A DNA stretch of 63,272 bases from an uncultured cyanobacterium (GTDB lineage: Bacteria; Cyanobacteriota; Cyanobacteriia; Cyanobacteriales; Cyanobacteriaceae): positions 1 through 63,272 of the forward strand of contig CAVVOP010000026.1 of assembly GCA_963749915.1 (NCBI GenBank), in the 5' to 3' direction. Below the pieces are notes generated by a model. That model saw only the letters and a program-made list of their open reading frames with translations. It did not search any database and had not been told where the DNA came from. Made by a program: the position numbers and the translations under genes. This document shows positions 6,362 to 9,404 of the stretch, piece by piece (the first letter of the stretch is position 1; the number at the start of each line of letters is the position of its first letter).

Positions 6362-6452
6362 GAGGAAACTAAGATAATTCTTTCCTCGATCCATTGTTCC
6401 TCTTTTTTTCTCTAAGGAATGAAGATTTAATAAAATAGCAAAGTTGAGTTTT

Positions 6453-6525
6453 GAGATTGCTTCGTTATCACTCACAATGACCCTTTTTTGAATAATGTCA
6501 TTGCGAGACGAAGTCGTGGCAATCT
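6453..6525. repeat. REP-like inverted pair
   Basis: GAGATTGCTTCG...CACAATGAC (6453-6481) and GTCATTGCGAG...GGCAATCT (6497-6525). Confidence 0.65.
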
Positions 6526-7158
6526 AAATTTGGAATTGTCTTGACTTACAATCGGTCGTACTAACTTGACTAAATTATTCCCTTTATATTCCCGAACTCC
6601 CCCCGTACAAAAGTATTGAATAACAACTAAAACCCTTATCAGTTCTAATTTAGAGCCTCATAAATTTAGTTCGCTTGTACCCATGTAAATTCAAGGTTTT
6701 CTTAAGATTTGTGGACACTCAATTTTGCTAAAATAGTAGTCATGTACTTAAGATAATTATGTATATTGAAAAAGTCCCCAATCGCAATTCACCTCCTGCT
6801 GTTTTGTTAAGACTCGACTCTCTACTTTTTTGTTTGTTTAAGCAGCCATTTTATCAGTATGTAGTATATCCCTCTTTTTTGGAGTGAATGTAGGCATAGT
6901 TCTTCCAGAAAGATGTTTGCTGGAACTGTTTTGTATTTGAAACTCTTTGAGTTGATTTTTGAGTCGGTTAAGAGCTTTAACGGGTTGATCATCATTGACA
7001 ACATCGCTGACCACCGAGACAAGAGAATCATTTTGAATAGCTGAACGCAGGCTTCCGACAGTTAATGCTGGAAGTTTGTGTTTAATAAGGGCCGTTTGCT
7101 CACCATAGAAAAATAGGCTATGGTCTAACAAAAGGCTCAGGAGCAGTCCTCGGCTTGC

Positions 7159-7713
7159 CTAACTTTTCACGGCATCTTTTTCGGTTGACAGGTGTTAGGT
7201 GTTAGGGGTTGGGTGTTAGGATTAGGGATTGAGGATAAGCTTTAATAGTTGAACAGTCAAAAAAAACACTTAGAAACTGATGGGAATACAATCCTATAGA
7301 GACTTAAAGGTTTGGCAAACAGGCATGGATTTAGCAGAAGAATGCTACTTAGTTACTCGCAATTTCCCCAAAGAAGAACTTTACGGGTTAATTTCTCAGA
7401 TTCGTCGAGCATCAGCCTCTATTCCCGCCAATGTCGCTGAGGGGCATGGTCGAAAAACCCGAAAAGAATATATACAGTTTTTATACATAGCACAAGGCTC
7501 TCTTAAAGAATTAGAAACTCATCTTTTATTGTCGAAAAGGGTAAAGTTAGGAGAGGGGAAAGTCATTGATTCTCTTTTAAATAGATGTGAATCCCTCGGA
7601 AGATTATTATCAGCATTGATTCGTGCCCTCGAAAACAAAAACTGAATTTTCCCTATCACCCAACCCCTAACACCCAAACCCTTTCTCAGGGAAAAGATAC
7701 CGTGAAAAGTCAG
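7159..7713 (+). mobile_element. Non-autonomous 555-bp cassette with TIRs and 10-bp TSD carrying a four-helix-bundle gene
   Basis: TSD CTCGGCTTGC at 7149-7158 and 7714-7723; TIR CT(A/G)ACTTTTCACGG(C/T)ATCTTTT extending to a 62-bp imperfect IR. Confidence 0.9.
7280..7645 (+). CDS. Four-helix bundle protein (23S rRNA intervening-sequence protein family)
   Basis: SYRDLKVWQ...FPKEELYGLISQIRRASASIPANVAEG.GR...FLYIAQGSLKELETHL. Confidence 0.93.
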   Translation: MGIQSYRDLKVWQTGMDLAEECYLVTRNFPKEELYGLISQIRRASASIPANVAEGHGRKTRKEYIQFLYIAQGSLKELETHLLLSKRVKLGEGKVIDSLLNRCESLGRLLSALIRALENKN

Positions 7714-9161
7714 CTCGGCTTGCTCCCTCTTCGGCTTGTTGACAGGCCATTTTTCCCCATCCTTCATGCTGCTTCCAGTCCTCAATAAAGACCTCTACGA
7801 GCCAACGTAAAGCATAATAGCTGATGAGCTCCTCTGAACGCCAGGTTGAGTCTGATGCCACCAGAAATCGAGGTTCTTTTTCCTCCCCATATCTCAAAGC
7901 AACCACTCGATATTTCTGACCATGAGATGTTATGGTCACAAGTGCAGAACTATAGTGAACTAGGGTTTCACAATGTCCTCGAAGTTGAACTGTAGTTGAA
8001 TTCCACTTTCTGGTGCCAAAGAAGTCTTTGACCGACAGCTCTTTGTCTCTGCCGAATTTAACTTTCTGGTTCTCTCTCATCTGGCTTAAGAACTGCACAT
8101 TCTCGTATATTTCCTTTATGCCACGAGTAAAACTGGGATTGAAGTAAGCAGAGTCTGCCAAGAGTGCTTTAATGATCACGAACGGATAATCGCTCTTAAA
8201 CTGTTTGATGAGTGAACATGCCAGTTTGACCCGAGTAGGATAGTCTGATTGTCGTTGTGGTTTTGAGGGTCTGTCTTTCTTTTTTACCCCTTGTTTAATT
8301 AGTTTCTTCTCATTCTTCGTCCATTCTCTAATTACTGGGTCTGGTCGATAAAAGCTCGCTCCGACAGGTATTGTTATTTCCGGTGTTACCAGTACCAAAA
8401 GCACAATATTCTGTGCTTGGTGAAATCCTCCTGTGCCTTTGAGTACTGTTTTATGGGTACCCCATATTCGTTTTGTGTTCTTGGAGCGACCTCTATCGCT
8501 ATCGTCAATAACAAGGACTCCCGAAGTAATATTGAATCGCTTCATGACGATAAGCACACTGGCACAAAGCAGGTAGTCCCAGCACTTGAGACCATGATAA
8601 AACATTTTACAAAGCGCGCCGTCCTGGTAACGACCACCACTGGCACGTTCTAGTCTTGCCCAACAAAGTGATTGTGTCAGAAGCATTCCCATCAAGACAA
8701 AGCACAAGAAACTTCCTTGAATTCTCGACAGTGGTTTATGACCTTCCTCTCGAAGTGTTTTGTTCAAGGCATCGACGTATTCGATAATATGTGGCAGAGG
8801 AGTGCGGGGAATCATAAATCTTATGGTAGAATCACGAATAGGCATAAGATTTATATGATGACAGATAAAAGTCAAGATCGTCTAACCTCTAACTAACTGA
8901 AACAAAATTAACTAATAAGAAGATTTAAAATGTAGAGAGTCGAGTAGAAGATTTAGGGACAATTTGTCTTGTGGAAGTAGAATGTAATTTGGCTCAGGGA
9001 AAGTCTAGTTTCCAGACCATTACCCGACCAACAGGATTACAACAAAAGGCATTAGATTTGGTGGAGATTTCCTTAATTTGTCCCCAGTAAATAGGGGGAG
9101 ATAAGTGGTTCAAAACTTTACACAGCACAGGTTTTCGTTTTTGTCAAAGGGGGAAGTTCGG

Positions 9162-9404
9162 GAATATAAAGGGAATTTGACTCAAGCAATCGATCCTGTT
9201 ACACCAGAACTTGTCTCTCTATTCTATCCTCGCCGACAACAATGGTCAGAACATTTTATCTGGAGTGCTGACGGGACAAGAATTGAAGGATTGACGGTAA
9301 TTGGTCGCACCACAGTAGTAGCTTTGCGGATGAATCATACCGTGATTATAGGGGCGCAAAGACGATGGGTAAGCAGTGGTTGGCATCCTCCGATAGAGAT
9401 CTAG
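9162..9404 (+). pseudogene. HNH endonuclease C-terminal remnant
   Basis: YKGNLTQAIDP...LFYPRRQQWSEHFIWS.DGTRI.GLT.IGRTTV.ALRMN...WVSSGWHPP; N-terminal Zn/HNH part missing at the IS end. Confidence 0.75.

Follow-up and report, generated by a model that had tools for sequence, protein, structure and literature searches.

How does an intact gene of the 23S_rRNA_IVP / S23p family (hereafter IVP) come to lie inside a transposase gene, enclosed by terminal inverted repeats and with no transposase of its own? The question is raised by a 555-bp element in a stretch of 63,272 nucleotides from an uncultured cyanobacterium of the Cyanobacteriaceae (contig CAVVOP010000026.1, assembly GCA_963749915.1), which we refer to as the window; the genome that contains it is designated G000. 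To our knowledge, the IVP/S23p family, which is common and scattered, has neither a known function nor a known route of spread. A first-pass annotation of the window described the element as a transposase-free cassette of IS4-like type moved in trans, and suggested that transposition of such MITEs (miniature transposable elements with inverted repeats) could explain the sporadic distribution of IVP genes. We report here that the cassette is an active element, which is most probably a mobile insertion cassette of the IS4 (Tn5/IS50-like) type that has captured an IVP unit and is mobilised in trans; the wider suggestion is largely refuted.

The 555-bp cassette is an active mobile element

The structure of the locus proved to be as annotated (Table 1). 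Between identical 10-mers lie exactly 555 bp; the terminal repeats of 22 bp are mismatched at the two positions quoted, and extend to a 62-bp inverted repeat of 81% identity; removal of the cassette together with one duplicate restores an open host frame of 490 amino acids (aa), which runs from a TTG at 8875 across the junction given; and the only gene inside is the intact 121-aa one (PF05635, E 1.3e-38).

G000 contains 12 full-length copies of the cassette, ten of them identical, one with one substitution and one with three extra bases. Eight lie between target-site duplications (six of 10 bp and two of 9 bp), all eight different; 12 full-length copies, eight with their own duplications, make a pattern far beyond chance. 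Three of these eight clean insertions split reading frames of 490-683 codons. The intact 121-aa PF05635 gene is present in 11 of the 12 copies, and 13 of the 34 PF05635 matches of G000 fall within the 12. This count leaves out a partial copy at G000:C21:307346-307687 (81%, many indels), which is probably a consensus error or a chimera.

Both filled and empty sites were found. Four public sequencing runs were compared at the window, and contigs of two of them, X1 and X12 (DNA runs of different studies), skip exactly 565 bases, joining 7148 to 7714 with a 10-base overlap; the uninterrupted host insertion sequence (IS), which the first-pass annotation had proposed to look for along with copies bearing other duplications, is thus seen in both. 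The X12 contigs differ from the window at several places, while X1 may be near the window's source; in run X5, coverage was of the flanks only. In G424, a close relative whose flanks are 97-99% identical, an identical element occupies a site that G000 has in empty form; there it is bounded by its own 10-bp duplication. When 401 genomes of the phylum were searched at the DNA level, with two candidates scored in each, no further whole copy came up, and no element with paired ends was found in viral contigs. The cassette therefore moves as a unit, producing 9-10-bp duplications at unrelated sites that include genes, and its amplification is very recent.

The helper, the cargo and other pairings with IS ends

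By scanning G000 for the end motif we found a 1502-bp IS (G000:C20:161811-163312; hereafter the C20 IS), whose left end agrees with each of the two cassette ends in 18 of 19 bases. Against NF033590 (cut-off 160) the transposase of this IS reaches 335 bits; the YREK motif lies in the main frame, at residue 278, and the N-terminal part, in a frame of its own, is matched by NF049926 (IS4/Tn5 DNA-binding piece). NCBIfam has a model for this split piece. Three copies in G424, 75-76% identical to the C20 IS, are split at the same point. This common split point suggests a programmed frameshift rather than decay, and the C20 transposase is probably made via a conserved frameshift. Genome G562 has a multi-copy element of 3031 bp, which opens with the 22-bp end pattern and encodes an in-frame 463-aa transposase; two of the three copies fetched have 9-10-bp duplications. 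The same ends also bound gene-less elements, some of which (125-189 bp) occur in G000, and these too show duplications.

The hallmarks of IS4 are described as a YREK motif, duplications of about 10 bp and a single frame without frameshift (PMC2266710). At 9-10 bp, the duplications of the cassette and of the G562 element lie within the 8-13 bp, about one helical turn, of the IS4 criterion; those listed for the IS50 subgroup are of 8-9 bp (PMC2266710). Compared by eye with the IS50 consensus CW------Y---CA-A--W- (Table 1 of PMC2266710), the cassette ends fit at positions 1, 2 and 9 and differ in the CA-A block, and are labelled here IS50-like only.

Two other transposases were considered as helpers and ruled out: that of the host IS, whose ends are unrelated and which is itself the target, and an intact 475-codon IS4 at G000:C19, which has different ends. 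Among the elements with the cassette's ends, one of 125 bp (G000:C8:260338-260462) is gene-less, has short repeat arms and resembles an emptied element of the second IVP lineage described below. The G562 element (L294:128-3158) also holds, besides a nested fragment that resembles a transposase, a 93-aa open reading frame (ORF) that belongs to no NCBIfam family. A 541-bp element with the same terminal repeats (L208:598-1138) carries a second kind of passenger, an unrelated 133-aa ORF without NCBIfam match, which by eye resembles the 93-aa ORF.

As to the cargo, the 62-bp arms of the cassette are composite, the outer ~30 bp being transposon end and the inner ~30 bp a tandem heptamer array. The nearest homologues of the protein (79-86% aa identity; Moorena, Rivularia, Hormoscilla and Pleurocapsa records and G233) are flanked by heptamer arrays and have no IS ends; we call such loci naked cassettes. 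In the nearest of them, L090, the gene is 83% identical and the alignment continues through arms and leader. Flanking inverted repeats scoring >=14 were found in 71 of 144 scorable IVP contexts, compared with 3.7% of 600 mismatched pairs. In the tree, the cassette's protein nests among naked relatives; tree labels were assigned from end motifs, and the first tree leaves out the pseudogenes L181/L215 and L196 and labels L015 'none', its type-D ends (see below) having been recognised later. The cargo thus appears to be a unit of heptamer arm, IVP gene and heptamer arm, captured from the pool of naked cassettes.

The same IS4 ends also enclose genes of a second IVP lineage, only 31% identical to the first. 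Genome G444 has such an element of 578 bp with a 9-bp duplication and an internal stop in the gene. In a metagenome scan, three of five paired-end elements of 525-585 bp carry the second-lineage gene, intact in L209 (9-bp duplication) and frameshifted in L211 and L212. A single clade of IS4-ended IVP proteins was rejected (p-AU 2.7e-37). In genome G029, a broken relative of the window lineage and two second-lineage fragments lie beside such ends, and an array of 7-9-mers stands just inside the terminal repeat in 7 of 24 end types, against a background of 3.7%.

Other IS types have taken up IVP genes as well. IS701-like ends enclose a single IVP copy in G000. From G015, 12 loci with such ends were retrieved, eight of them with 7-8-bp duplications; the IVP gene is full-length in one of the 12 and truncated in 11. 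The family was assigned from a remnant in G000 (NF049921, E 9e-51), a label that is tentative given the 4-bp duplications that PMC2266710 lists for IS701. A second MITE is nested in most of the G015 elements (L051-L062), which it interrupts; they multiplied while broken. ISL3 ends with 8-bp duplications surround IVP genes at L035, L036, L064 and L078. A further IS4-type end, type D, makes 11-bp duplications. It bounds an intact 1764-bp IS, with such a duplication, on plasmid5 of Nostoc commune HK-02 (AP018331.1; L353:764-2527), in which an IVP gene (annotated 'S23 ribosomal protein') lies 3 nt upstream of a 395-aa IS4-type transposase; the latter is annotated as hypothetical, and the repeat arms enclose both genes. 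Related arrangements occur in G508 and G556, and in deleted form in G000. An IVP gene is found upstream of the type-D transposase at 1 of 30 loci, several of which have no upstream sequence. A further IVP gene is represented by fragments in an element of 822 bp (G000:C9:68660-69481), also in G000, which has type-d ends and is flanked by an 11-bp duplication. In cyanobacteria, IVP cassettes would thus have become joined to IS ends in at least five separate pairings, as a side route and not as the main spread of the family. These cases show that selfish cassettes can nest as MITE cargo, repeatedly and across unrelated IS families.

We propose the following mechanism. On each side, ~30 bp of cyanobacterial IS4-family end sequence would flank a captured arm-IVP-arm unit drawn from the naked pool, and an IS4 transposase with matching ends, for which the C20 IS is the candidate, would cut and paste the whole in trans. 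The IVP protein would be dispensable for each jump, since gene-less elements have duplications and the G015 family multiplied with a mostly truncated gene. The annotated transposase-free element moved in trans is thereby supported by the distinct duplications, the empty sites and the presence in the same genome of an IS4 with matching ends, which also suggests the trans step.

Several observations weigh against this reading. Four of the 12 copies lack a duplication; their flanks recur elsewhere, as adjacent deletions or rearrangements would leave. The autonomous IS expected by the first-pass annotation was found in the C20 IS only in part: its right end matches the cassette over the first 13 bases only, it is single-copy and without duplication, and its transposase frame is split, in departure from the single ORF given for IS4 (PMC2266710). 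In the second lineage, naked and IS-ended genes intermix in the tree, and the direction from naked to captured depends on midpoint rooting. Finally, IS-ended clades show purifying selection (see below), unlike purely idle cargo.

Among known systems, the cassette most resembles the mobile insertion cassettes such as MIC231 of Bacillus cereus and other mic elements, in which IS4-family repeats surround a passenger, without transposase, and are moved in trans (PMC3913671). Both have terminal inverted repeats, no transposase inside, a target duplication and a passenger in the transposase's place. The cassette differs in its CT-starting Tn5/IS50-like ends, which are not those of IS231, in its cyanobacterial host, and in its passenger, an IVP gene with its own repeat arms and not a host enzyme or resistance gene; trans-mobilisation is reported as demonstrated for MIC231 (PMC3913671), and is proposed here for the cassette. 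Nezha and other cyanobacterial MITEs are likewise described as non-autonomous, with IS-matched ends and filled and empty sites (PMC3184786). Nezha, which shares its terminal repeat with ISNpu3, measures 130-170 bp (PMC3184786); the cassette differs in its size of 555 bp and in its intact conserved gene. The 1764-bp Nostoc IS, with its extra gene between left end and transposase, recalls the passenger carriers of the IS231 subgroup (PMC2266710). As far as the account in PMC2266710 goes, passengers are seen only in IS231; here, another IS4-type group has an IVP passenger.

The S23p intervening sequence of Coxiella encodes a protein of the same family, and its ORF lies in the loop of a long stem (PMC4990558). 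Unlike rRNA intervening sequences, the cassette is wrapped in IS ends and stands outside 23S rRNA; it disrupts genes at 3 of 8 clean insertions, whereas intervening sequences are cut out harmlessly. The protein is a sequence relative of XCC0516, whose structure is solved (PDB 2GSC, E 6e-21), and shares a related fold family with Avd of diversity-generating retroelements, the bAvd match being weak (E 2e-4; 22.3 bits, under the Pfam cut-off of 40). In contrast to those retroelements, the cassette has a single gene, with neither reverse transcriptase nor template repeat. Our literature search gave no paper tying the IVP/S23p family to MITEs or IS passengers; subscription papers, ISfinder entries or supplements may hold one.

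Role of the IVP protein and spread of the family

The rival that survives best holds that the IVP protein serves the element: as an Avd-like RNA-binding pentamer acting on the arm hairpin, it would increase transposition, favour survival after horizontal transfer or lower the cost of an insertion to the host, and for that reason IS ends would repeatedly gain and retain the gene. Avd is described as a pentameric RNA-binding barrel like S23 proteins (PMC10053308; bioRxiv 10.1101/2023.10.23.563531), and the predicted RNA fold of the cassette is a long stem with the gene in its loop (z -3.86; 0 of 100 shuffles). RNase III is reported to excise the ORF-bearing rRNA intervening sequence of Coxiella (PMC4990558). 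The IS701-ended IVP genes form a clade (7 rows, support 98/98), as do those with type-D ends (6 rows, support 97/99). Pairwise ratios of nonsynonymous to synonymous substitution (dN/dS) are 0.12-0.22 for the IS701-like, 0.14-0.18 for the ISL3 and 0.07-0.18 for the type-D IVP genes, and 0.16-0.20 for the type-D transposase; these are crude pairwise counts at dS of 0.36-1.31, near saturation. Selection between species combined with decay within genomes is what one expects of genes working for the element. The arrays inside the G029 ends and the position of the IVP gene in the intact Nostoc IS point the same way.

Against a serving protein stand the single occurrence of the gene among the 30 loci of the Nostoc-type transposase and the broken genes that were amplified or persist in G015, G029, G444, L211 and L212. 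Expression was not seen in the single RNA run, X18, whose reads covered the target IS only. Moreover, the second IS4 lineage is intermixed with naked genes, and the same dN/dS could therefore result if naked copies under selection were captured repeatedly or acted as donors in conversion. We therefore regard a serving protein as possible but doubtful. The more general proposition, that DNA transposons have working accessory factors in the IVP/S23p proteins, with at least three cyanobacterial IS families repeatedly recruiting gene plus hairpin and keeping them under selection across species, is slightly more speculative still. If true, an RNA-binding IVP pentamer would help DNA transposons to spread or be tolerated, as Avd does for retroelements. 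A direct knock-out test of the protein's value to mobile DNA is offered by the Nostoc plasmid, from a cultured strain, on which a relative lies beside its transposase within an intact IS.

Does the element explain the scatter of the family? That IS4-type MITE transposition generally scatters IVP genes, as first proposed, is improbable and largely refuted. In its favour are the share of the PF05635 matches of G000 that belongs to the 12 copies and the IVP genes in three of the five metagenome elements. Three end motifs, a set without type D, were looked for at the 80 loci of the genome collection with the best homologues. Of the 77 that could be scored, 76 had none of these ends; the only one that did, L088, is the G424 copy, from a near-conspecific. 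The survey of IVP gene flanks for terminal repeats and duplications, which the first-pass annotation had recommended, therefore went against its wider claim. The exact 22-bp end pattern is present in 8 of 401 genomes of the order, and the elements that bear it are mostly gene-less or unpaired. A search with the second lineage, in which two candidates per genome were scored, gave matches in 65 of 301 genomes; of the matches listed, a single one reaches across both ends. Given the naked state of the closest homologues as well, the cassette does not explain the family's scatter. The annotation had held that a predominance of gene-less elements would mean a one-off capture. Most indeed carry no IVP gene, but the capture was not one-off, the same ends carrying a second IVP lineage. 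What the findings add is one concrete travel route, by which several unrelated transposon families have picked up IVP genes, and a family member in an element that is active, has amplified recently and for which a candidate transposase can be named; the movement of the far commoner naked cassettes is not solved by them.

Very unlikely is a reading without any DDE transposase, in which the 555-bp unit is moved by its own IVP protein, for instance via an RNA step. The family's likeness to the retroelement accessory Avd and the unexplained mobility of naked cassettes would favour it, but the ends and duplication length match the IS4 of the same genome and the gene-less elements, other IVP lineages show the duplication length of their own IS end (7-8, 8 and 11 bp), and the protein has no catalytic domain match in Pfam/NCBIfam-type profile searches. 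An assembly artefact, that is, a repeated contig piece, is refuted by the eight different duplications, the identical copy in another genome and the filled and empty forms in public runs, even if consensus errors seem to account for the garbled copy at G000:C21:307346 and for the three extra bases of another copy.

Layout of the locus and its surroundings

Table 1. Features of the cassette and its target in the window
Feature	Position	Strand	Remarks
Target IS (IS701-like DDE transposase, 19-bp inverted ends)	6812..8945	-	Inverted-repeat search; uninterrupted in runs X1, X12
Left target-site duplication	7149..7158	no strand	10-mer identical to 7714-7723
Non-autonomous IS4-type cassette, whole element, 555 bp	7159..7713	+	Copies in G000 and G424
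Left transposon end, made up of a 22-bp terminal inverted repeat (7159-7180) and ~9 bp common to the second IVP-carrying lineage	7159..7189	+	Matches IS4 left end at G000:C20:161811 (18/19 bases); aligned to L209, L196 ends
Left heptamer-repeat arm of cargo cassette	7190..7227	+	Inverted to 7652-7682; homologous to arm of naked L090
Intact IVP gene, 121 aa, four-helix bundle (23S_rRNA_IVP / S23p family)	7280..7645	+	PF05635, TIGR02436, PRK12275 above cut-off
Right heptamer-repeat arm	7652..7682	+	Pairs with left arm in predicted RNA fold
Right terminal inverted repeat, 22 bp	7692..7713	-	Mismatches left repeat at 2 positions
Right target-site duplication	7714..7723	no strand	10-mer identical to 7149-7158

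An Rfam search of 6400-9300 gave no match. No terminator was found within the cassette, and a promoter search there returned two weak promoter-like sites on the minus strand, against 0.9 expected, to which we give no weight.

The cassette splits the transposase gene of the target IS into 7724-8875 and 6838-7158; the scores of this transposase against the Pfam DDE_Tnp_1 and IS701 models stay under the cut-offs. Remnants of other repeated elements (6577-6811 and 8946-9176) in turn enclose the target IS, which is inserted in them. A stub at 6742-6811 resembles what we take to be the start of an IS1634-type transposase, and a 28-bp inverted repeat (6577-6604 / 9149-9176) occurs a single time in G000.
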